Assembly: GCA_951812955.1 (NCBI GenBank)
Contig: OX638340.1
Span: forward strand, 2,752,001 to 2,816,000
Length of the DNA: 64,000 nt
Reading direction: 5' to 3'
DNA from: an uncultured Gemmatimonadota bacterium
GTDB lineage: Bacteria > JAAXHH01
Shown here: piece by piece, positions 8,275 to 52,060 of the stretch
How the letters are laid out: every line of letters begins with the position of its first letter
How positions within the stretch are numbered: position 1 is the first letter of the stretch
Position numbers and translations under genes: made by a program
Notes under the pieces: generated by a model
The model's input: only the letters and a program-made list of their open reading frames with translations
Told to the model about the DNA's origin: nothing
The model's database searches: none

Positions 8275-11200
8275 TCAGTTCTCATTGGCGGCGCGGACCG
8301 GTCCGGCCAGCAGTCGGTAAGCGAGGGGTACTACGAACAGGGTCAGCGCGGAACCTATGATCAATCCGCCGATGAGTGTACGCGCCAGTGGCGCGCCCAG
8401 TTCACCGCCCGCGCCGAACCCTGCGGCCAGCGGCGCGACACCGCAGACCGTGGTCACGGTCGTCATTAGAATCGGACGCAATCGGCGCCGGCCTGCCTCG
8501 TGAATGGCCTCCCTGCGGGAAAGTCCTTCTCTTTCGGCACGCACGATGAAATCGACTTTCAGGATCGCATCGTTCACGACGATACCGACAAGGACGATAG
8601 CGCCGATCCAGGTGATGACGTTGACGCTCGCCCCCCACAGGCTAAGGACGACGACAGCGCCCGCCAGCGCCAGGGGAACGACGGCGATGATGATCCACGG
8701 AAGGCGTAGCGATTCGAACTGGGCCGCCAGGATCAGGAGTACGATCAGAATCGAGAACGCCAGCGAGATCAGCATGGACCGATAGGCTGTTCGCAACGTC
8801 GACTGGGCGCCGCCGATATCGACTTCCAGACCGTCCGCCCGGTTGCTCGTCCATCCCGCGTCCGCCAGCAGGCCCCGTATGCGATCGGATACACCGATCA
8901 GGTCGTCACTGTCGATATCCGCGTTTACGATCGCTACGGGCGTCTGGTCGACGCGATACAGTTCGCCTGCGACTTCGACTGGTTCGACCGTTGCCAACGT
9001 GCGTATGGGAACCCGGCCCACGGCCGTATCGATGGGTTCGTCCAGAATGGCCTGCAACCCGGGCTGTTCCTCCTGGCTTCCCCGCACCACGATGGGTATG
9101 CGTTCATCGGTTCGGTTGAACATGGTCGCCGTCCGTCCATCCATGTAGGTACGCAACGCGTCGGCGATCTTCGCGGGCTCCACGCCGAGTTGCGCGGCGC
9201 GGCGTTCATCCACCACGACGCGATAGCCCGGTCGTCCTTCGACCCCCTGAAGGACGACATCAGCCAGCGGCAACCCGGACGCACTCAACAACGACCGCAG
9301 GACTTCCGCAACGTTTCCGGACGTGTTTTGATCGTCGCGTCCGTCGCTTCTGCGCGTGAGCACCTTGATGGATACGTCGGGTTGGTTTCCGATCAGCGCT
9401 GTCGACATGGCGGTGACCGGCGGTTTCATTTCGACCGCGGTTCCCAGGTGAACCGGAATCTGCCTCCTCAAGGTCGCCATGGCCGTTTGGACGTCGGTCG
9501 CGGTTTCATCGAGATAAACCTGTATCTGCGCCTGTTCAAGTCTCATGGCCCCCGGCGCCGACCCCGGCACGAAGGAAGACACGGCTGCGCCCGCCGTGGT
9601 CAGCGTGCCGCGCACCCCCGGGAGGGAGCGAGCGATGTCGGACAGTTCGCGTGCGGATTCCAGGGTGGCTTCCAACGAAGAACCCTGCGACAGCGAAAGT
9701 TCCATCCAGAACGCACCTTCATCGACTTTCGGAAAGAATGCCCGGGGAAGGGACCGACCCAGGTGCGCAGCGGCTGCCAAGAAAACCAGCAACAGGACCG
9801 AAGTCCGTATCGGATGATCGATGATTGCGTCCACGGCGCGGCGATACATATCATGGAACCTGGAGGACCGCGACGATACGCGGGTGGCGTCGCGCCGCGT
9901 CCATCGGGCCACGAGGGTAGGGAGCAGGGTCAGCGCCACGACCCACGCGAGCAGGAGCGTCACGGTGACGGCCAGCGCCTGATCCCGGAATAACTGTCCC
10001 GCGACGCCCGGCGTCAAGGCCATCGGCAGGAATACCGAGACGGTGGTGAGCGTAGATGCGGCCATGGGCAGTGCCACCTCCGTGGCGCCGCGTCCCGCAG
10101 CCGAATTCGCGTCGAGGCCGGTCTCCCGGTGCCGCGCGATGTTCTCGACGGAGATGATGGCGTTGTCCACCAGCATGCCGACGCCGAGTGCCAGGCCACC
10201 AATGGACATGACGTTCAATCCCACGTCTAGCGTGTCGAAAACGAAGAAGGAAGCGATAACGGCCACCGGCATGGCGATTGCTACGGGGATAGCGTAACGG
10301 ACGTTCCGGAACCAGAGAAGCAGGGCTAGGAACGCCAGCACGCCGCCGCCGGCCAGTGCCGTCAGCGCACCCCGGATGGACCGCCGGACGAAGTCGGCCT
10401 GATCGAATGCCGAGGTCAGCGCGATATCCGGATATTCGGCGTAGAATCCCACTATCACCCGATTAACATCGTCGCTGGTCGTCAGCAGATTTGCGTCCGC
10501 GGTCTTCTGGATCAGGACACCGACGGCGGGCATCCCGTCGAACAGTACGGCCCCCAGCCGCTCGCGTTCGCCCATCTCCACCTCCGCCACGTCGCGTAAA
10601 CGTATCGGTGCGGCCCCGGGTTCGCGGATCAGCACGGCTTCGCGCATATCCTCCAGGGACCGGAATGCGCCGTCAATCCTCAGGGCGTAGCGGTAGTTTC
10701 CGCGACGAAGGAGACCGGCGGGCTTGTCCTGATTATATGCCGCCAGCATTGCGTGTACGGCGTCCAGGGTCAGATCGTACGCGGAGAGACGGGTGGGGTC
10801 TATCGTGATCCGTACCTCCGGCCCGGCGCCGCCGATCACCCTGGCGCGGGCGACGCCCGGCGTCTGTTCCAGCCGGGGTCGCAGTATACGCTCTCCCATC
10901 TGTTGCAACGTAGCCAGGGAAGGTCCATCCTCCCCTGATCCGGATCTGAGCGCCAGGCCCATCATGGGCGCGTTGTCGGGATCAGTATCCAGAACCACGG
11001 GACGGTCGCTGTCCTCGGGCAGGTTAAACCGTTGCGCGTCCAGCCTTTCGCGCACGATCTGGACCGTGTTTCGAAGATCGGAGCTCCAGGCCAGTTCGAC
11101 GGTCACGAGGGATTCGCCCTCCCTGGAGATGGACCGCACCCGTTGTGCGCCGGGCAGGTTCCGCAGGGTTGATTCTATGGGTTCGGTGATCTCCCGGACG

Positions 11201-12823: not shown

Positions 12824-13273
12824 TTATCCTGAATGATTGGCATTCCCCATGAATATCATACGATGCTCGAGAATCAACTTCCGACGTATGGGTTTGCCGG
12901 GTGAATAGCTCAGATACCCCCCGAAGCCTCTTTCTCTTGCGTACACGTGCGCGACGGGTTGGAATTGTGCTCGATACACACTGTAATAGAACACCATTTG
13001 AATGGGACGGATCAGTCTGACCAACAAACTGGCCTTGATTGTGCGTCGAGGGAAATGTACGTCGCCGTCGTCATTGGTTGTCCTATCCTGGCTGCTATAG
13101 GTTTTTTCAAGGGCGAAGTGCCGCCAATACTGGTGTACGTCAACACCTTTCAGCGGGTAACCGTCCCTGTCGAACACAGTAACGCTCCAGGCAGGTACTA
13201 CGGTGGACTCTACAGGATAGCCTATTACAACTGCTGTGACAAGAATGATCACTGTCACAAAGTATTTGCGCAT
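12824..13273 (-). CDS. Hypothetical secreted protein
   Basis: 149 aa with a signal peptide (MRKYFVTVIILVTAVVIGYP). Sits in a locally AT-richer patch. Its stop lies 4 bp from the adaptor start and it overlaps the MauE gene end. No recognisable family. Confidence 0.4.
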   Translation of the reverse strand: MRKYFVTVIILVTAVVIGYPVESTVVPAWSVTVFDRDGYPLKGVDVHQYWRHFALEKTYSSQDRTTNDDGDVHFPRRTIKASLLVRLIRPIQMVFYYSVYRAQFQPVAHVYARERGFGGYLSYSPGKPIRRKLILEHRMIFMGNANHSG

Positions 13274-13731
13274 TTAAACGCCTCCCTTATTGAAAATGGA
13301 ACGTGACGCGCGTAGACAAGACTTGAAGCGGCCGCCAATATGAACGTATTCCGAACCAGCACTTCGGCAATGGAGACGTTTCTTAAGTCATCGCCTAATC
13401 CGAAACAACCGCACGGCAGGTCTGCCCCGTAATACAGCCCCCAGGCCAGCGCGCCCATAAAGGACAACATCAGCAGCACAACGATCATCGCGCTATATCG
13501 GATCCATACCCCAATCACGAGACATAAACCGGTTGAGATTTCGATCCAGGGCAACGCAAGGGCGAAAGGGACTGCCAGCGGCTCGGGTACAATGTCATAC
13601 GACCGCACGATCTGCGCGAAGAGTTCGAGCTCCGGCATCTTGGCCAACCCTGCCCAGATAAAGATACCCCCTACCACTAAACGCAGCGCCAGGAGACCGA
13701 AGGGAACTATACGATCGTGTCCGCTTGCCAT
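13255..13731 (-). CDS. MauE/DoxX family membrane protein
   Basis: Four predicted TM helices and the CGCFG motif (DLPCGCFGLGDD) characteristic of methylamine-utilisation MauE-like / DoxX proteins. Confidence 0.7.
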   Translation of the reverse strand: MASGHDRIVPFGLLALRLVVGGIFIWAGLAKMPELELFAQIVRSYDIVPEPLAVPFALALPWIEISTGLCLVIGVWIRYSAMIVVLLMLSFMGALAWGLYYGADLPCGCFGLGDDLRNVSIAEVLVRNTFILAAASSLVYARHVPFSIREAFKCANTL

Positions 13732-13755
13732 GATTCATTTACCCCCGATGCATTT

Positions 13756-14844
13756 CTACAATGTGTCGAGAGGTTGCCTGAGCGTGTATGTCACTACGGC
13801 GGGATTGGATGACTCGTCGGCGGGTTCCACCAACATGTACAGACGATCTTCCCGTGTGAAGAGCGCGTCCGGACCTCCCATGAAATCCGGCATCTGGAGA
13901 CTGCTCGCGATCTGGTTCAGATCGGCATCGTACAGATCCATGAAGACGCGGGACCCTTGCGGGTCGGCGAATACTGCGCCCAGCCACCGATCGCCGATTC
14001 TAAGGAGTTGATAGAACTGGCTCCATGAACGCATATACTCCTGCCGTTTCCGCATGTCGTCCAGGACCATCGCGTCGGGCGGGTCCCGCGGAGGCACGTA
14101 GAAGGGCGATCGACCCTGCGCGGTTTTCACGAGTTCGCCATCGGGCGTGTATTTCCTCACGGTATATTCGTACGGGGTCGCGACGTAGAGAAACCGCCCG
14201 ACCGATACAATCCCTCCACCCCGTGAAGCCGCGGCGACATTGTAGTTCTCGGACTGAGGGGCGAATTCATTGAGCGTATCGCCCTGATCGTTCAATTCGT
14301 GCACCACGTGAATTGCGCCGCTGGTATTCACGTATCCGAAAACCCGACCCTCGGCAGTTACGTGTATATCTTCCAATCGCGGCGAAGGCGAGAAGCTGTT
14401 CCTGAAAACATAGTCGTTCCCGTAGATTGAAATGCGTGACAGCGTCATGTCGTAAAGTAAAAAAACTCCATCTCGCGTAGCCGCCAATGCAAGGGGATAG
14501 CGATACTCGCCGGGACCATCGCCCGGAGCGCCGAGGTGTTTTTTGCCTCGTCCCTTCCCATCGAATACGTCGACGCGAGTGGTAACGAAGTCCAGCACGA
14601 TGCAATCACCGTTGGACGCCACGGCGCCGATCTTGGGCAAAGGACCGAGCAGGAACTCATCGCTCGAATCGAGATTGATCCTCGATTCCACCCGGTAGAC
14701 ATCGTCGAATGTCAACGGTCGCTCCTGGCTCGCGCATGCCAACGGTCCGCACAGTCCGCATAGTATGAACAGCGCAATGGCAGAACGCGAAGCGGGACAC
14801 CATCTTGTAACGGGTGTAAAGGAACTGAGGTTTTTCGTGCTCAC
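13756..14844 (-). CDS. 6-bladed beta-propeller lipoprotein, TolB-like/NHL-like (paralog A)
   Basis: Signal peptide plus lipobox-like LAC. Repeated beta-strand blades (GDCIVLDFVTTRVDVFDGKG, LYVATPYEYTVRKYTPDGELV). Clear paralog of 15566..16717. Confidence 0.7.
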   Translation of the reverse strand: MSTKNLSSFTPVTRWCPASRSAIALFILCGLCGPLACASQERPLTFDDVYRVESRINLDSSDEFLLGPLPKIGAVASNGDCIVLDFVTTRVDVFDGKGRGKKHLGAPGDGPGEYRYPLALAATRDGVFLLYDMTLSRISIYGNDYVFRNSFSPSPRLEDIHVTAEGRVFGYVNTSGAIHVVHELNDQGDTLNEFAPQSENYNVAAASRGGGIVSVGRFLYVATPYEYTVRKYTPDGELVKTAQGRSPFYVPPRDPPDAMVLDDMRKRQEYMRSWSQFYQLLRIGDRWLGAVFADPQGSRVFMDLYDADLNQIASSLQMPDFMGGPDALFTREDRLYMLVEPADESSNPAVVTYTLRQPLDTL

Positions 14845-14889
14845 GGTGCGTATCCTTTCTATGTCGCGTTGTGCTTCGCCGTCGTGGAA

Positions 14890-15531
14890 TCAACCTTGTG
14901 CCGCGATGGTATTGATGTAGACGCCAAGCTTCTCATAGAAAGTGACGGTTCCCTGTTCGTCCTGATAATCCGAGTAATTCGCCAGTAGAACTCGATTGTC
15001 ACGTCCCAGAAACACGATCAAGGGGTATCTGTTGTAATCGAACCTCTTTAACAGATGTGATTCGGCGTCCATTACGGCAACGTCTTGAATCCGGTATTGT
15101 TTCAGATGAGAGAGAAAATGGGTCTCTTGAAAATCGGAAAAAACCATAATGGCGTCTATGTTTCTTTCCCTCAAGCGACTACGATACTCGTTGAACAACC
15201 GAAGCTCCATGTCCAGACAGCGGTTGCAGTTCGTTCCCGCAAAATGGTAGATCAGCTTATAACCGCCCGTATCCGAAAACAGGTCTCTGAACCTGGTGTT
15301 GGCGCGCTGCAATCGAGCTAGATCCGGTCCCAGACCAGCGCCTTCAAGCGCATGTTCATGGATGGTCAATTGTTCGCCTATGCTCATGGTCACCTTGTTC
15401 TTCCACGTGCCGTTTTCGGCGGTTAACTCCGATACTCTTTGGAACAGCACGATATTCAATGTGAGCAAGGAAACAATTCCGGCTAAAAGCCATTTTCGAG
15501 GTATGTCGAGACTAACCGCATTCGATGACAT
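14890..15531 (-). CDS. Thioredoxin-fold protein with CxxC motif (TlpA/MauD-like redoxin)
   Basis: N-terminal TM/signal anchor (WLLAGIVSLLTLNIVLF). Redox motif GTNCNRCL (C-x-x-C) in a thioredoxin-like context. Confidence 0.6.
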   Translation of the reverse strand: MSSNAVSLDIPRKWLLAGIVSLLTLNIVLFQRVSELTAENGTWKNKVTMSIGEQLTIHEHALEGAGLGPDLARLQRANTRFRDLFSDTGGYKLIYHFAGTNCNRCLDMELRLFNEYRSRLRERNIDAIMVFSDFQETHFLSHLKQYRIQDVAVMDAESHLLKRFDYNRYPLIVFLGRDNRVLLANYSDYQDEQGTVTFYEKLGVYINTIAAQG

Positions 15532-15565
15532 GCGGACACCTCCTACGGGCTTTACTGTAATACGC

Positions 15566-16717
15566 TTAACCCGATGATTTGAGTTCGTAGACGACTACAG
15601 TTGGATTGGGCAGATTCTTAACGTCCTGCGACAACACGACGGGTGCTTCTGAACGCAGCAGATAGAGTCGGTCACCCCTGGAGACGATCCCCTGCGAACC
15701 ACCGCCAATGTGCTCGGGCAATTGCAGGTCGCCGGTAACGTAATTGAGATCTGTGTCGTAGAGATCCAAAAACACGCGACGCTCATTTGGTTCGGCCAGG
15801 ACCACTCCTATCATCTCGTCTCCTATCTTCAACAGTTGTCTTATGTGGCTCCACGTGGCGTGGTACGCTTGTCGTTTGCGGAGATCGCTCGAAATTTCGT
15901 GCTCATCAAAGTCTGTCGAAGGCGGCACATAGTGCGACGATCTGCCCCGTACCGTTCGAATCAGTTTTCCACCAAGATCGTACTTCCGAAGTTCGTACTC
16001 ATAGGGGGTGATTACATAAAGGTGTGAACCAAGCAGCAAGATACCTCCCCCTCTGGATTCTCCCACGGTACTGAACTCCTCGTATTGATCGGCGAAACTG
16101 TTCTTGATCTCTCCTGACCTAGTGCACTCGTAGACTACCCTATCGGCCCCCTTCCTGCTAGCGACACCACTCGTATAGCAAAAGAAGCGATCGTCGGCTG
16201 TCACGATAATCTGACCCAGGAAAAGAGGAAGATCGACACTGCTGTTGAACGTAAAATCTTCGCTGTACTCCTGGATTCGCAGAAGATCTCCATCGTATAC
16301 GTAGTACCTGTGTGTTTGATCGCTATAGTAAAGGTTATCGGGGTAGAGGTATTGGTCCGCATTCGTCCCAAGACTTCCAATCTTCGCCTTGCTTCCGCCC
16401 TTGGAGTCGAATACAAGTATCTGTCGAACCCCGAAGTTATCCAACACAATGAAATCGCCCTGTTCGTTTATCGCGCTGAACCAGGGCAAAGCGCTCAGCG
16501 TGAAGCCCGAATCATTGGCAAGCGGGATCTGACGTATTTCTGTATACACTTCCAAGAAAGACTGTTTATCTCCATAGGAATCGGCGAGATGAGCAATGGA
16601 TGTATTGCGGGCTTCTTCCATCGAACCATGAGTACTCTGACACGCCATTGCTCCCATGAAAAACACCATTAGCGAAAAGGACAGCAACCGTAGCGTTTCA
16701 TTCGTTCGCTCTGACAT
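15566..16717 (-). CDS. 6-bladed beta-propeller lipoprotein, TolB-like/NHL-like (paralog B)
   Basis: Signal peptide plus AMAC lipobox-like. Blades GDFIVLDNFGVRQILVFDSKG and LYVITPYEYELRKYDLGGKLI are colinear with paralog A. AGGAGG lies 9 nt upstream of the ATG. Confidence 0.7.
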   Translation of the reverse strand: MSERTNETLRLLSFSLMVFFMGAMACQSTHGSMEEARNTSIAHLADSYGDKQSFLEVYTEIRQIPLANDSGFTLSALPWFSAINEQGDFIVLDNFGVRQILVFDSKGGSKAKIGSLGTNADQYLYPDNLYYSDQTHRYYVYDGDLLRIQEYSEDFTFNSSVDLPLFLGQIIVTADDRFFCYTSGVASRKGADRVVYECTRSGEIKNSFADQYEEFSTVGESRGGGILLLGSHLYVITPYEYELRKYDLGGKLIRTVRGRSSHYVPPSTDFDEHEISSDLRKRQAYHATWSHIRQLLKIGDEMIGVVLAEPNERRVFLDLYDTDLNYVTGDLQLPEHIGGGSQGIVSRGDRLYLLRSEAPVVLSQDVKNLPNPTVVVYELKSSG

Positions 16718-34671: not shown

Positions 34672-35202
34672 TCACGCAGACTCCGATCGGATTACCAGGC
34701 ATTCACCCACTTCCTCGCATACCGCGCAGGAATCGAAATCGCAGATTGACAGCACGTTGGCGTCCCAGTAGGACTTGAGGAACGCCTTGCCGTGGGGGTC
34801 GTCCGAAAGGAGGAACTGCAGGAAGAGCAGTAACCGTTCCCCCGTCTTCGTACTGATCAGGTGCTCGATCTTGCACGCGTCGATTTCCGCCTGATCCGCG
34901 TCGATATGCAGGACGCCCTTGAGAAAGGCGATGAGGATCTGCCGGTGCGACCAGACCGACTGCGCCAGCCGGTTTCCCTCTTCCGACAGCAGGAGAAACC
35001 GGTTCCGGTCTTCCTCGAGATATCCCTTCTCCCGGAGCGACTTGATCATGATCGACGCGCTGCCGGGCGTGATGTGCATTTCCCGGGCGACATCCGACAC
35101 GCGGGCGTATCCCTGGTCCTCGATCAACTGCTGGACCGTCATCAGGTAGTGCGCGCCGCTGTGCGTGATCTCGTTGTGCTCGAATTCTCTCCAGACATCC
35201 AT
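34672..35202 (-). CDS. DtxR/MntR family metal-dependent transcriptional regulator with Cys-rich C-terminal tail
   Basis: HTH SGAHYLMTVQQLIEDQGYARVSDVAREMHITPGSASIMIKSL and dimerisation/metal-site region (HRQILIAFL...DACKIEH). C-terminal tail ICDFDSCAVCEEVGEC. ORF runs to 35247; start chosen at the internal Met. Confidence 0.75.
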   Translation of the reverse strand: MDVWREFEHNEITHSGAHYLMTVQQLIEDQGYARVSDVAREMHITPGSASIMIKSLREKGYLEEDRNRFLLLSEEGNRLAQSVWSHRQILIAFLKGVLHIDADQAEIDACKIEHLISTKTGERLLLFLQFLLSDDPHGKAFLKSYWDANVLSICDFDSCAVCEEVGECLVIRSESA

Positions 35203-35355
35203 AATCCTGTTCGATTCGTTATGGCAACCATCGTGTTGCCGTCGCATAGAAATGTTTGGCTACTCAAATATGACTTTGCATTATATAACCTTCCGTTGGG
35301 GTGTCAAGAAAAAAGAAGGCGAGCAGTGTTTTTTTCGCAATGACAAGTTTTGTAC

Positions 35356-35384
35356 TTGACGGGCGGACCGGGCCATGGTATATT
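35356..35384 (+). promoter_or_regulatory. Sigma70-like promoter candidate (TTGACG-N17-TATATT)
   Basis: Near-consensus -35/-10 hexamers with 17-nt spacing, 47 bp upstream of the transposase ATG, in an AT-richer patch. Confidence 0.35.
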
Positions 35385-35431
35385 GAGGGTAGATAAGGAC
35401 AACAAACCATTTACCCTGTTGGAGTTATACC

Positions 35432-36307
35432 ATGAACTTGCACGAAGTGTTTACCCGATTCCCCGATCAGAAAGCCTGTATCGACCACCTGGAAGCGATC
35501 CGTTTTGCAAACGGCGCATATTGCCCGTTGTGCGGGAGCATGGAGAACGTCCGCCGGTCCAACCTGAAAAGCCGTGTCGGACGCTGGAACTGCCATGACT
35601 GCAAATCCTCGTTTAACGTCCTATCCGGTACGCCGTTATCCGGTACGCATATCCCGTTGCCCCGATGGTTCGCGGTCATGGCCCTGATGGTCAATGCCAA
35701 GAAGTCGCTGTCGAGCCACCAGTTGGCGCGGGATCTCGGATTGACCCAGCCTACGGCCCTGTACATGCAGGAACGCCTACGGGCGGTTATGGCATCCGAT
35801 CAAGCCGGTATGCTGGCCGGCATCATCGAAGCGGACGAAACCTACGTGGGCGGACGCCCGCGCAAGCAGAACAAGCGCGACGATTCCCCGACCGGCGGAC
35901 AGGGTAAATCGGACAAGACCCCGGTAATCGGCGCAGTCGAACGAGATGGCAAGGTCGTGGCGAAGATCGCCGATGACATGACCGGCAAGGGCGTGCTGAA
36001 CTTCATCCAGACCGCCGTAAGTCCGGCGGCTCAGATACTGGTTACCGATGAGAACAAGGCATATCGGGCGGTACGCGGCATGATGGCGCACAGCGTGATC
36101 AATCACCGTTACGAGTACGTCAACGGGCCGGTACACACGAACACGATTGAAGGGTTTTGGAGCCTGTTAAAACGGGCGTGGTACGGCAGTCATCACAAGT
36201 ACACGGTCGGACGTATGCCGTTGTTTATCGCGGAAGCGGCTTGGAAGTACAACCACCGGAAAGACGGATGCGCGTGGGACAGTTTCACGCGTGCATTGTT
36301 CGCGTAG
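35432..36307 (+). mobile_element. IS1595-family transposase gene (IS ends not defined)
   Basis: 291 aa. N-terminal zinc-finger (CPLCGS...CHDCKS) and DDE region (ADETYVGG...DENKAY...NTIEGFWSLLKR) typical of the IS1595/ISXO2-like family. Local GC drop. Confidence 0.8.
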
Positions 36308-36325
36308 ACAGGAACTCGTTTTCGC

Positions 36326-37576
36326 TTAGACGGGCGATAAGATACTCCATAGGCCGGTCGCCCTTGATCTTGTTGCAATGACCACATAGCAGTTGCAGGT
36401 TGCCGATATGACCCCCCCCCCCTTCGACTGTGGCACGACATGATCGACCTCGAAATGCCGGTAATCGAACGAGTATTTACACCCGTTGCATTGCCCCTCT
36501 TGCTCTCCGAACAGGATATGCTTCGTCTCCCTGTTCTTGTACATCACGTCCAGCACGCCCTCTTGCTTCGGTATATCCTTCCGGTGGATGATATCCCCGA
36601 ACAGCCCGTGATGATCCCGTAGACGATGCTCCACGAGTTCCACGGCCTTCTCCGACAGGTCGATCCCCGCCCATTGCCTCAAGTGCGTTTCAGCCGAAAC
36701 ACACGCGGTAGCGCATCCACAGAACGGATCCAAGACCACGTCGCCCTCGTTGCTGGATGCAAGGATGATGCGTTCCAACAACGCAAGGGGCTTCTGGGTT
36801 TTGAACCCCGTATATTCCTTACCTCTGAGGAAGGGTATATGCGTAATCCAATCTTCAGGAAACTTGCCATTTGGGTTTAGTTCGCAAATCCCTGAAGATG
36901 GTCTCCCAGAACCCAAAGACGATTTAGCGTAGCCCGACCGATTTCGGGATGATTCAGCGTATGGAAGACGTATCGGATCGACGTTGAACGTCCACTGGTC
37001 GGTCTTAGCGTAGAAAAGTATAGTATCGTGCGCCCTCGACAATTGCCGTTGCCTGTTACCGGCCATTCGAGAATAACACCATACAATCTCGTTTCGGAAG
37101 CCAGACCGCCCGAAAACTACATCCATGAGCGTTTTAAGGTAGTGGCTGGCCGTCGGGTCGCAATGCAGATATATCGACCCCGTAGACTTCAATACGCGGC
37201 GCATCTCGATCAAACGCACGGCCATCATGCACAGATACGATTGTGTGTGTTTCCCATGCGCCAAGCCCGCCGTTTCCACTACTCGATACAATGCCGGTTC
37301 CGTGTCTGCGATCAGTCCCATCCAGGCCACATCCAGGTCGGAGAGGGTCCATGTATCCTTGAACGCGGCCCCGGCCGCCTTGCTGCCGATGGGCGCCGCA
37401 TAGTTCCGGTTCGAGTTGAACGGCGGATCAAGGTATATCAGGTCCACGGATTCGGAGTTCATGCCGCGTAGAATGTGCAGGTTGTCGCCCGTCCATATGG
37501 TACGGTTGACCCAGTTAGGAGCAGCCATAGACGCCCTTTCGACAACGGCCCCGAAGTTCCCCCCGGAGCCGTTCAC
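36326..37576 (-). CDS. Beta-class DNA amino-methyltransferase (N6A or N4C) fused to a C-terminal HNH nuclease domain; HNH frame disrupted at a G11 homopolymer
   Basis: Motif IV DPPF (DLIYLDPPFNSNRNY) precedes motif I (VVLDPFCGCATACV). C-terminal CNGCKYSF...VDHVVPQSKGG starts an HNH motif. The as-read frame then gives VISATCNCYVV. A +1/-2 shift at the homopolymer restores GNLQLLCGHCNKIKG. Confidence 0.75.
   Translation of the reverse strand: MNGSGGNFGAVVERASMAAPNWVNRTIWTGDNLHILRGMNSESVDLIYLDPPFNSNRNYAAPIGSKAAGAAFKDTWTLSDLDVAWMGLIADTEPALYRVVETAGLAHGKHTQSYLCMMAVRLIEMRRVLKSTGSIYLHCDPTASHYLKTLMDVVFGRSGFRNEIVWCYSRMAGNRQRQLSRAHDTILFYAKTDQWTFNVDPIRLPYAESSRNRSGYAKSSLGSGRPSSGICELNPNGKFPEDWITHIPFLRGKEYTGFKTQKPLALLERIILASSNEGDVVLDPFCGCATACVSAETHLRQWAGIDLSEKAVELVEHRLRDHHGLFGDIIHRKDIPKQEGVLDVMYKNRETKHILFGEQEGQCNGCKYSFDYRHFEVDHVVPQSKGGGVISATCNCYVVIATRSRATGLWSILSPV
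36412..36422. repeat. C11 (G11 on coding strand) homopolymer tract inside the HNH-coding region
   Basis: Eleven consecutive C residues counted from the sequence. Confidence 0.9.
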
Positions 37577-37966
37577 CGCGTGATTGTGGATTGTTTGTGA
37601 ATAAATCGGGGTTGCGCTGCCCTGTCAAGCGTAACGTACACGGTAGTCGGGTTCGTGCCTAATCTCATACATAGTTAAAGGACCGGAGATCATGCACGAT
37701 CCCCGGTCCTTTAACTATAGTCCTCTGCGATCTAACCGTCAATCGGCTCTATCAGTCCGGACGGCGATACTTTCCTGCATCAACCACGGCCCATACCATG
37801 ACTACGAGCGGAACGGCGTACCGTCAACATTACGGGCGGAGGGTTGCGCGGTAAGTACAAAACTTGTCATTGCGGTTTTTTTTCGCGGGGCGGGTGCGAG
37901 GTGGGTACGTACGCGCACAAGCGTGCGCGCGTTCCGTAGTTGTGCTAAAAAGGAGTTGAATGTATT

Positions 37967-51906: not shown

Positions 51907-51980
51907 TGGGCGCTAGTGGACTCGAACCACTGACCTCCACGATGTGAGCGTGGCACTCTAACCGGCTGAGCTAAGCGCCC
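51907..51980 (-). tRNA. tRNA-Val (anticodon CAC)
   Basis: Manual fold of the reverse complement: acceptor GGGCGCT/AGCGCCC; D-arm GCTC...GAGT; anticodon stem CCACG/CGTGG with loop CTCACAT; T-arm AGTGG TTCGAGT CCACT; discriminator A. Confidence 0.7.
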
Positions 51981-51986
51981 GGCAAA

Positions 51987-52060
51987 TGGGCCCGCCAGGA
52001 CTCGAACCTGGGACCGTCCGATTATGAGTCGGATGCTCTAACCAACTGAGCTACAGGCCC
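51987..52060 (-). tRNA. tRNA-Met (anticodon CAT; elongator type, tRNA-Ile2/lysidine not excluded)
   Basis: Reverse complement GGGCCTGTAGCTCAGTTGGTTAGAGCATCCGACTCATAATCGGACGGTCCCAGGTTCGAGTCCTGGCGGGCCCA. G1:C72 is paired, so not an initiator. Loop CTCATAA. Confidence 0.7.

Follow-up and report, generated by a model that had tools for sequence, protein, structure and literature searches.

A transposase gene and a methylase-HNH gene share one IS1595-family element in an uncultured Gemmatimonadota bacterium

Does a transposase gene that adjoins a convergent DNA methylase gene belong to an insertion sequence (IS) that damaged the end of the methylase gene, or do the two genes travel together? This question is raised by a stretch of 64,000 nucleotides from an uncultured Gemmatimonadota bacterium (assembly GCA_951812955.1, contig OX638340.1, positions 2,752,001 to 2,816,000 of the forward strand), which we call the window and to which all positions refer. 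An interpretation made from the letters of the window, here the sequence-only reading, had described an islet of low G+C content (GC) at 35250-37966 that holds only an IS1595-type transposase gene and a gene for a beta-class amino-methyltransferase with a C-terminal HNH domain. The IS was thought to have inserted at, or to have replaced, the 3' end of the methylase-HNH gene. We confirmed both genes and found no other credible gene in the interval, but the repeats around the genes led us to a different view of the insertion.

A single pair of inverted repeats encloses both genes and delimits a mobile unit of 2,539 bp (35336-37874), so that the true boundaries are 35336 and 37874 and not 35250 and 37966. 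The repeat search identified the two 29-nt arms as the longest inverted repeat of the region, with 90% complementarity and perfect identity of the outer 22 nt. When these 22 nt were searched with up to 3 mismatches, only two matches were found in the 64 kb, both outside the gene pair, while shuffled sequences gave an expectation of 0. An exact search of the genome-contig collection gave no match to the 22-nt repeat. The same octamer, GTTTTTTT, abuts both arms, and IS1595-family elements duplicate 8 bp of their target. An Rfam scan detected nothing inside the element.

Orthologous loci were located through the neighboring GlnE-like protein, which is 95% identical in L088 and 87% identical in L089 and L090 (L numbers denote related loci and P numbers related proteins). 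The window and these three loci have the gene order FeoB, PepSY_TM, FeoA, iron-dependent repressor, and GlnE-like gene in common. In L088 and in L089/L090 the repressor gene and the GlnE-like gene are adjacent, and neither islet gene lies between them. The L088 spacer (...GCGAGCAGTGTTTTTTTTCGCGGGG...) has a single copy of the octamer exactly at the insertion point of the window, and the empty site reads ...CAGTGTTTTTTTTCGCGG.... The inverted repeats, the bracketing duplication, and the empty site with one octamer indicate a recent transposition that moved the transposase and methylase-HNH genes together. We concluded that the element is a recent insertion between two housekeeping genes and was acquired horizontally as mobile DNA. 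Horizontal acquisition had already been proposed from the letters of the window, with orthologous genomes carrying the same genes at native GC and without IS signature named as possible counter-evidence; this pattern was not seen, since the islet genes are absent from the locus of the relatives. The ends of the IS and its target-site duplications were thus defined by repeat search and empty-site comparison. The insertion at GTTTTTTT lies in the divergent promoter region between the iron-dependent repressor gene and the GlnE-like gene, 20 bp from a consensus repressor promoter (35307-35280, promoter scan). The spacer to the right of the insertion (37883-37915) differs from the L088 empty site by an 11-bp indel (GGGTGCGAGGT-like).

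The transposase matched the Pfam family DDE_Tnp_IS1595 (PF12762) from model position 1 to 153 of 153 (1.7e-35) and the NCBIfam model NF033547 for IS1595/ISXO2-type DDE transposases (3.3e-50; 170.9 bits, cut-off 75). An N-terminal zinc ribbon was recognized by Zn_ribbon_IS1595 (PF12760; 2.9e-09, 37.2 bits, cut-off 25.4). More than 4,700 relatives were found at E≤1e-40, the closest with 96% and 81% identity; in exact-protein look-ups neither the transposase nor the methylase of the window was on record. The TTGAC and TATATT positions of a promoter-like site for the transposase gene (Table 1) are kept in L001, L099, and L101. The ends of the relatives (GGGAATTAT.../CGGAATA...) resemble the end consensus of the ISNwi1/ISNha5 subgroup. 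Typical IS1595 members are about 1 kb long and are not known to have a cargo gene like the methylase-HNH gene.

The methylase frame comprises 400 amino acids (aa) from M17 at 37528, or 416 aa from a GTG codon at 37576. M17 is probably the true start, because homologues begin with M-x-x-PNWVNRT behind a conserved GGAG-like ribosome site. The open reading frame (ORF) matched N6_N4_Mtase (PF01555; 3.1e-42), and the addition of one G gained the match to an HNH domain (1e-11), as the sequence-only reading had anticipated. At the break, one reading frame gives ...EVDHVVPQSKGGG, and the next gives GGHIGNLQLLCGHCNKIKGDRPMEYLIARLSENEFLSTRTMHA followed by a stop. In the frame corrected to G12 the stop is at 36285-36287, and the gene overlaps the 3' end of the transposase coding sequence in antisense orientation by 23 nt, close to the earlier estimate of about 22. 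The corrected C-terminal tail LIARLSENEFLSTRTMHA is kept in the in-frame relative P0003 (LIARLSENEYLSTQTATA), and therefore the overlap is a native feature and not a scar.

The DPPF motif near the N-terminus and the DPFCGCAT motif near residue 285 have the order of beta-class amino-methyltransferases. By sequence and fold, the nearest solved relatives were the beta-class N6-adenine enzymes M.MboIIA, M.BceJIV, CcrM, and M.RsrI, and also Type III Mod subunits; PADLOC recognized the cargo as a Type II/III methylase, with the best score for a Type III Mod-like protein. The cargo is probably a beta-class N6-adenine DNA methylase. The HNH domain is of the Cas9/IscB type, and an alignment of the family showed no variation in its catalytic and zinc residues (C363, C366, D378, H379, N393, C398, C401, N402). 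The G11 frameshift of the window splits this domain after D-H, so that the intact nuclease of a single-chain Type IIC-like enzyme is missing here; the complete motif is confined to relatives, for example P0003, P0007, and the gene of L101, and to an allele with G12, which is hypothetical. As the sequence stands, with the nuclease half out of frame, the methylase would act as an orphan. The earlier proposal of an orphan modification gene holds to this extent, and only for the G11 frame of this copy.

Between the window protein and the L001 protein (P0002), identity falls to 28% in residues 153-243, compared with 89% on the N-terminal side and 97% on the C-terminal side. Outside this central module the protein identity of 89-97% is accompanied by about 78% DNA identity, which speaks for selection on the methylase, and the nucleotide similarity has a gap at the module. 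The nearest relative of the module was that of P0004/5/8/9 (59%). The module is presumably the target-recognition domain. Shuffling of the central module within a conserved scaffold would fit diversifying pressure on target specificity, as in restriction-modification.

The homopolymer that interrupts the HNH frame (Table 1) is the sole G/C run of at least 8 in the 64-kb window, the next longest having 7. Tracts at the same K-G-G site were found in four lineages: G11 in the window, G9 in L001-L003, G8 in L085, and G9 in L087. The frame is kept by the L087 tract and lost in the other three lineages (the window; L001-L003, two short of or one over the frame; L085, one short). L086 has GGC GGC GGC in place of the tract, and in 80 loci of the wider family the site has mixed codons and is in frame in every one. 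G runs of at least 8 occur in five of the six cargo genes of this clade (including L101) versus one of 72 in the wider family. Thus, a simple-sequence repeat inside the ORF differs among relatives by lengths that shift the frame. A second, independent G9 run was observed in L101 (6485-6493), in the recognition-module region of the in-frame methylase-HNH cargo gene. The tract length of L001 was identical in three independent assemblies (NODE_, scaffold_, and k119_ naming).

In all three off copies the distal HNH frame is open and conserved and has no second lesion. For the 24 codons after the run, dN/dS (the ratio of nonsynonymous to synonymous substitution rates) was about 0.06-0.15; the window and L001 differ by 2 synonymous and 0 non-synonymous changes, and the value for L001 and L085 was about 0.06. 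By these comparisons the distal HNH codons are still under purifying selection. The data suggest that the G run may be a hypermutable off-switch, possibly also an on-switch, for the nuclease alone. Programmed ribosomal or transcriptional frameshifting was considered as a general mechanism and rejected: a single programmed frameshift is unlikely because the correction that restores the frame is not the same in all off copies (+1, +1, and +2 nt).

Five further convergent units of a transposase and a methylase-HNH gene, each with its own 8-bp duplication, were found at unrelated sites (L001, L085, L101, L009, and L049; Table 1); altogether, 8-bp duplications are present in seven related elements besides that of the window. 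The insertion in L001 cuts an ERG4/DUF1295-like gene into pieces of 198 aa and 207 aa. Pairwise identities of transposases and methylases co-vary (Mantel r = 0.77, p = 0.0006, twelve pairs; r = 0.43 without the close clade). In L101, a 58-aa ORF without family match lies upstream of the methylase gene and has no counterpart in the window.

Other members of this IS lineage carry other genes. L099 and L100 have a transposase 96% identical to that of the window (88.6% at the DNA level), the same terminal repeats, the duplication GTTATTTC, and unrelated cargo. This cargo occupies 1.2 kb from the transposase stop to the right repeat (5877-7096 in L099) and consists of two ORFs without a Pfam family match, one of 166-197 aa that begins like a signal peptide and one of 82 aa. 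A related IS in L103 (3406-6948; also in L104-L107, the same locus from several samples) has a transposase with 67% identity and about 3.5 kb between the repeats, and no clean target duplication was found for it. Its cargo comprises two overlapping small ORFs (77 and 97 aa) in a toxin-antitoxin-like arrangement and an ORF of 312 aa that contains a DPPH motif and matches N6_N4_Mtase below the threshold. The cargo position is exchangeable in this IS lineage, which fits the "transporter IS" concept. Next to two intact methylase-HNH genes (1446-2923 and 8590-9485) on one 14-kb contig (L004), the ORFs for IS1595 transposases are fragmented. It is possible that the cargo outlives its transposase; this contig looks like a long-read assembly, and the breaks could be errors.

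The methylase-HNH family is large. More than 8,000 homologues exist, and the 8,000 candidates retrieved all had E-values below 1e-3. In bacterial genomes at least 593 places carry such a gene. Among the best matches listed, many carriers are metagenome-assembled genomes with names pointing to sponge symbionts (Poribacteria, Poriferihabitaceae, Porisulfidus); the other carriers among these matches include many Dehalococcoidia, Chloroflexota, and Acidobacteriota, and also Latescibacterota, Nitrospirales, and Gemmatimonadota. This distribution suggests cross-phylum transfer within one habitat. The only recurrent neighbor of the genome copies is an IS1595 transposase gene, and solitary copies lie in unrelated contexts. 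The idea that methylase-HNH fusions are typical of phages is not supported: matches in the records of phages (50,697) and plasmids (72,556) were essentially limited to the methylase part, with at most 47% identity, and full-length relatives were found in 3 of 2.9 million viral contigs, compared with the genome places counted above. A scan of metagenomes of the Joint Genome Institute (JGI) for the methylase-HNH gene gave two distant loci only. As a separate observation, the methylase-HNH proteins of the genome-contig matches L005-L084 are 50-60% identical across many phyla. The Bacteroidia contigs L068 (1053-3700), L081 (4824-7400), and L091 contain direct tandem arrays of two or three methylase-HNH paralogues with a spacing of about 1.25 kb.

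We consider it likely that the locus is one IS1595-family transporter IS, with the methylase-HNH gene as restriction-modification-like cargo whose nuclease was disabled by a slippage-prone G run. The transposase would be transcribed from the promoter with its -35 hexamer in the left repeat, would bind the repeats, and would move the whole unit by cuts with an 8-bp stagger in AT-rich targets. The methylase is predicted to mark a site that is set by the swappable central module, and in copies with an intact frame the C-terminal HNH domain (beta-beta-alpha-metal) would cut DNA without this mark. Methylase and HNH domain together may form a one-protein, restriction-modification-like selfish or defence module riding on the IS, and a defence or addiction function would favor retention of the element. 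Contraction of G12 by one base would have split the HNH domain here and left an active methylase without nuclease; the G run may serve as a slippage-prone mutational off switch, possibly also an on switch, for the nuclease only. Several points weigh against this explanation. Among the matches listed, about 85% of the genome copies are solitary, with no IS1595 transposase gene within 5 kb and no flanking repeats, and the methylase-HNH cargo does not depend on the IS. The restriction-like part is derived from just two things, domain logic and module swapping. The AlphaFold model had a mean pLDDT (predicted local distance difference test) of 60 with poor HNH and recognition parts and was used solely for the methylase fold; among solved structures none was found that spans a beta-class methylase and an HNH domain. 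L001, L002, and L003 represent three samples with the same tract length, and no switching was observed within a lineage. The source is a chromosome-scale metagenome assembly, in which the call of G11 instead of G12 may stem from a homopolymer error. In the library searched we found no paper on this methylase-HNH fusion, and searches on methylase passengers of IS1595 elements and on IS1595 in sponge symbionts likewise gave no description of the element of the window.

The overlap of the two genes could also be read as the trace of an IS1595 element of about 1 kb that landed in a resident methylase-HNH gene at its 3' end or took the place of this end. The corrected frame runs 23 bp antisense into the transposase gene, and this feature alone looks like a junction. 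Between the genes, however, no sequence resembling the inverted repeats was found (≤3 mismatches, 64 kb), and thus no IS end; the repeats and the duplication bracket both genes and the empty site lacks both. Moreover, the two-gene unit recurs at unrelated sites, the overlapping tail and the convergent overlap are kept in in-frame relatives, and the nucleotide similarity to L001 is unbroken over the junction. Since the empty site and the conserved tail refute this explanation, we give it almost no credit. It is improbable, too, that the methylase-HNH protein is part of the machinery for spread or retention of the element, for example by cutting unmethylated element-free alleles, into which the element would then be copied by repair, or by second-strand cleavage in transposition. 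The identities of transposase and methylase do co-vary over deep divergence, the two genes are paired in two different orders and with transposases of only 30-40% identity, and the HNH domain is of the Cas9/IscB type. Nevertheless, the L099/L100 relatives transposed with a target duplication while carrying other cargo and no methylase-HNH gene, typical IS1595 members are not known to carry such a gene, copies with the frame off still show fresh-looking insertions, and most members of the methylase-HNH family are solitary.

Two further alternatives concern the frameshift. It may be an artefact of the assembly, with a real G12 and a complete methylase-HNH protein. An 11-base homopolymer is a typical site of base loss in a long-read consensus, the source contig of 3.8 Mb suggests a long-read assembly, and the downstream frame is perfectly intact. 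We regard an artefact as rather unlikely, given the tracts at the same site in three other lineages, two of them also out of frame by different amounts, the reproduction of the L001 off-length in three independent assemblies, and the lack of other broken genes or long homopolymers in the window. Plain decay is a possibility of slightly greater weight, although we still doubt it: the HNH domain would be dispensable or harmful, and the G run an irreversible weak point instead of a reversible switch. For decay speak the three off copies out of four with a tract, all by contraction, the identical off-length in three samples, and the methylase-HNH genes beside fragmented transposases in L004, which show that parts of the element do decay. 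Against it argue the distal HNH codons, which have acquired no second lesion in any of the three off copies and show strong purifying selection between off copies, as do the independent G9 run elsewhere in the in-frame gene of L101 and the strong enrichment of long G runs in this clade. With the transporter IS as the preferred explanation, a bolder proposal can be made, which we put forward as speculative: a multi-phylum IS1595 lineage, with many carriers named like sponge symbionts, would routinely carry a one-protein methylase-nuclease with a shuffled recognition module in which poly-G toggles the nuclease alone, making it a minimal, transposable, phase-variable restriction-modification, addiction, or homing device with permanent methylation and switchable cutting.

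Table 1. Features of the element in the window and of related elements.
Feature	Position	Strand	Basis or description
Left 8-bp target-site duplication, GTTTTTTT	35328..35335	.	Identical to 37875-37882; one copy at the L088 empty site
Left terminal inverted repeat (IRL), CGCAATGACAAGTTTTGTACTTGACGGGC	35336..35364	+	29 nt at 90%; same repeats flank the 96%-identical transposase in L099/L100
Promoter-like site for transposase, TTGACG-17-TATATT, TG-extended, -35 hexamer within IRL	35356..35384	+	Consensus scan; predicted function
IS1595-family DDE transposase, 291 aa, apparently intact	35432..36307	+	Pfam and NCBIfam matches over nearly whole models
Distal HNH motif and C-terminal tail (HIGNLQLLCGHCNKIKGDRPMEYLIARLSENEFLSTRTMHA, then stop), now out of frame	36285..36411	-	Shifted-frame translation; tail kept in P0003
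Methylase-HNH frame as it stands; methylase domain complete, HNH truncated after D-H	36326..37528	-	ORF and domain search
Homopolymer G11 (C11 on + strand), K-G-G-G-G site of HNH	36412..36422	-	One base short of in-frame G12
Variable central module, residues 153-243, lowest-GC coding part of islet	36800..37072	-	Alignment of window protein with P0002
Non-coding leader, methylase start to IRR	37529..37845	-	Alignment, repeat search, DNA fold, promoter scan
Right terminal inverted repeat (IRR)	37846..37874	-	Repeat search and 22-nt end search
Right 8-bp target-site duplication, GTTTTTTT	37875..37882	.	Identity with left copy; L088 empty site
Element in L001/L002/L003			Duplication TAGATGAA; methylase 76% identical to that of the window, about 78% DNA identity over both genes
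Element in L085			Duplication AACAGGAA; repeats CGGAATAA...GGGCTTGAC
Element in L086			No duplication available; 2,325-bp contig bounded by repeats
Element in L101			Duplication CGATAAAT; transposase 81% identical; window-type repeats; methylase-HNH in frame
Element in L009			Duplication GAACTTTT; transposase 30-40% identical; both genes inside repeats
Element in L049			Duplication TTATTTTA; transposase 30-40% identical; both genes inside repeats
Element in L048			Duplication AAATCTTT; both genes inside repeats; transposase upstream on same strand, not convergent
Element in L007			Duplication with 7/8 bases matching; both genes inside repeats; transposase upstream on same strand

The leader of the methylase gene is about 200 bp longer than in the L001, L085, and L086 elements. 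It contains a near-perfect palindrome of 48 bp (37671-37718) with 24-nt arms and no loop (DNA fold -21.2 kcal/mol, z = -7.7), which overlaps a promoter-like site on the - strand (37742-37714). The palindrome is found only once in the window and is without counterpart in the L001, L085, and L086 elements. The alignment hinted at a vestigial inner IRR near 37625-37660, a match too weak to claim.

The GC drop reported for 35250-37966 exists and is modest (0.547, the whole window having 0.596; the islet ranks at about the 10th-15th percentile among windows of its size). It is neither uniform nor the lowest of the window. The transposase core (35700-36000) has 0.60-0.63, which is the genome level; the troughs are at the intergenic and inverted-repeat part (35100-35550, 0.46-0.49) and at 36750-37050 (0.49-0.52), which corresponds to the swapped methylase module. 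A 2.7-kb stretch near 14.5-15.5 kb has a lower GC (0.50) than the islet. The region 13255-16717, where GC is lowest in the window (about 0.50), may be another acquired cluster; its genes, all on the - strand, code for a thioredoxin-like protein, a membrane protein of the MauE/DoxX type, and two six-bladed beta-propeller proteins with DUF5128. Two adjacent tRNA genes were recognized by Rfam at 51907-52060 (-).

The annotation of the locus changes from two genes to one mobile unit with defined ends, insertion site, and empty-site control, so that the element can be given a name and followed. The element also draws attention to a large cargo family that has barely been described and that spreads from phylum to phylum, in part by means of IS1595 elements. 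In the host genome, the insertion lies in the divergent promoter region of the repressor and GlnE-like genes and may add a new methylation specificity. If the G tract does switch the nuclease only, the element would be a natural example of the safe silencing of a selfish or defence module with protection kept on.

The concept of the transporter IS (tIS) for the IS1595 family and others goes back to Siguier, Gagnevin & Chandler 2009, as summarised in PMC11891212. In PMC11891212, the passengers named for IS1595-family tIS are transcription regulators, and methylases are named only for an IS1380-family element. The element of the window resembles IS1595 tIS in its single-ORF transposase with zinc ribbon and DDE_Tnp_IS1595 domain, inverted repeats of about 25-30 nt, an 8-bp duplication, an internal passenger, and a length of 2.3-3.0 kb. 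The methylase-HNH gene is enclosed by the repeats and the duplication, neither gene is present at the empty site, and L099/L100 carry other cargo, all as expected of a tIS. Its cargo, a methylase-HNH fusion, differs from the transcription regulators named in that review.

The cargo resembles single-chain restriction-modification enzymes (Type IIC/IIG, for example MmeI and BcgI) and mobile restriction-modification units. A single polypeptide contains both the methylase and the nuclease domain, a shared recognition module would direct the two activities, this module is swapped between otherwise near-identical genes, and the gene is on mobile DNA. In the known Type IIG enzymes, a gamma-class methylase is combined with an N-terminal nuclease of the PD-(D/E)XK type. 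The window gene, in contrast, encodes a beta-class methylase with a C-terminal HNH domain; its nuclease is out of frame here, and cleavage is a prediction. Phase-variable methylases are known from phasevarions, in which Type III mod genes of Haemophilus, Neisseria, and Helicobacter contain simple repeats. The likeness is a homopolymer within the reading frame of a Type III Mod-like methylase gene, whose length differs among related copies and toggles the frame. The window tract, however, follows the methylase domain and would switch the nuclease only and not methylation, the length differences were seen between copies only, and the host is an uncultured Gemmatimonadota-like bacterium and not a host-adapted pathogen. 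The orphan beta-class N6-adenine methylases CcrM, M.BceJIV, M.MboIIA, and M.RsrI match residues of about 20-310 and have the same order of DPPF and DPFCGCAT. They are only 17-25% identical to the window protein, which adds the C-terminal HNH domain and the variable recognition module and is encoded by an IS-borne gene and not by a conserved chromosomal regulator gene. The element is of a known kind, an IS1595-family transporter IS, and the leads that it offers are the cross-phylum methylase-HNH cargo family and the nuclease-disabling poly-G tract.

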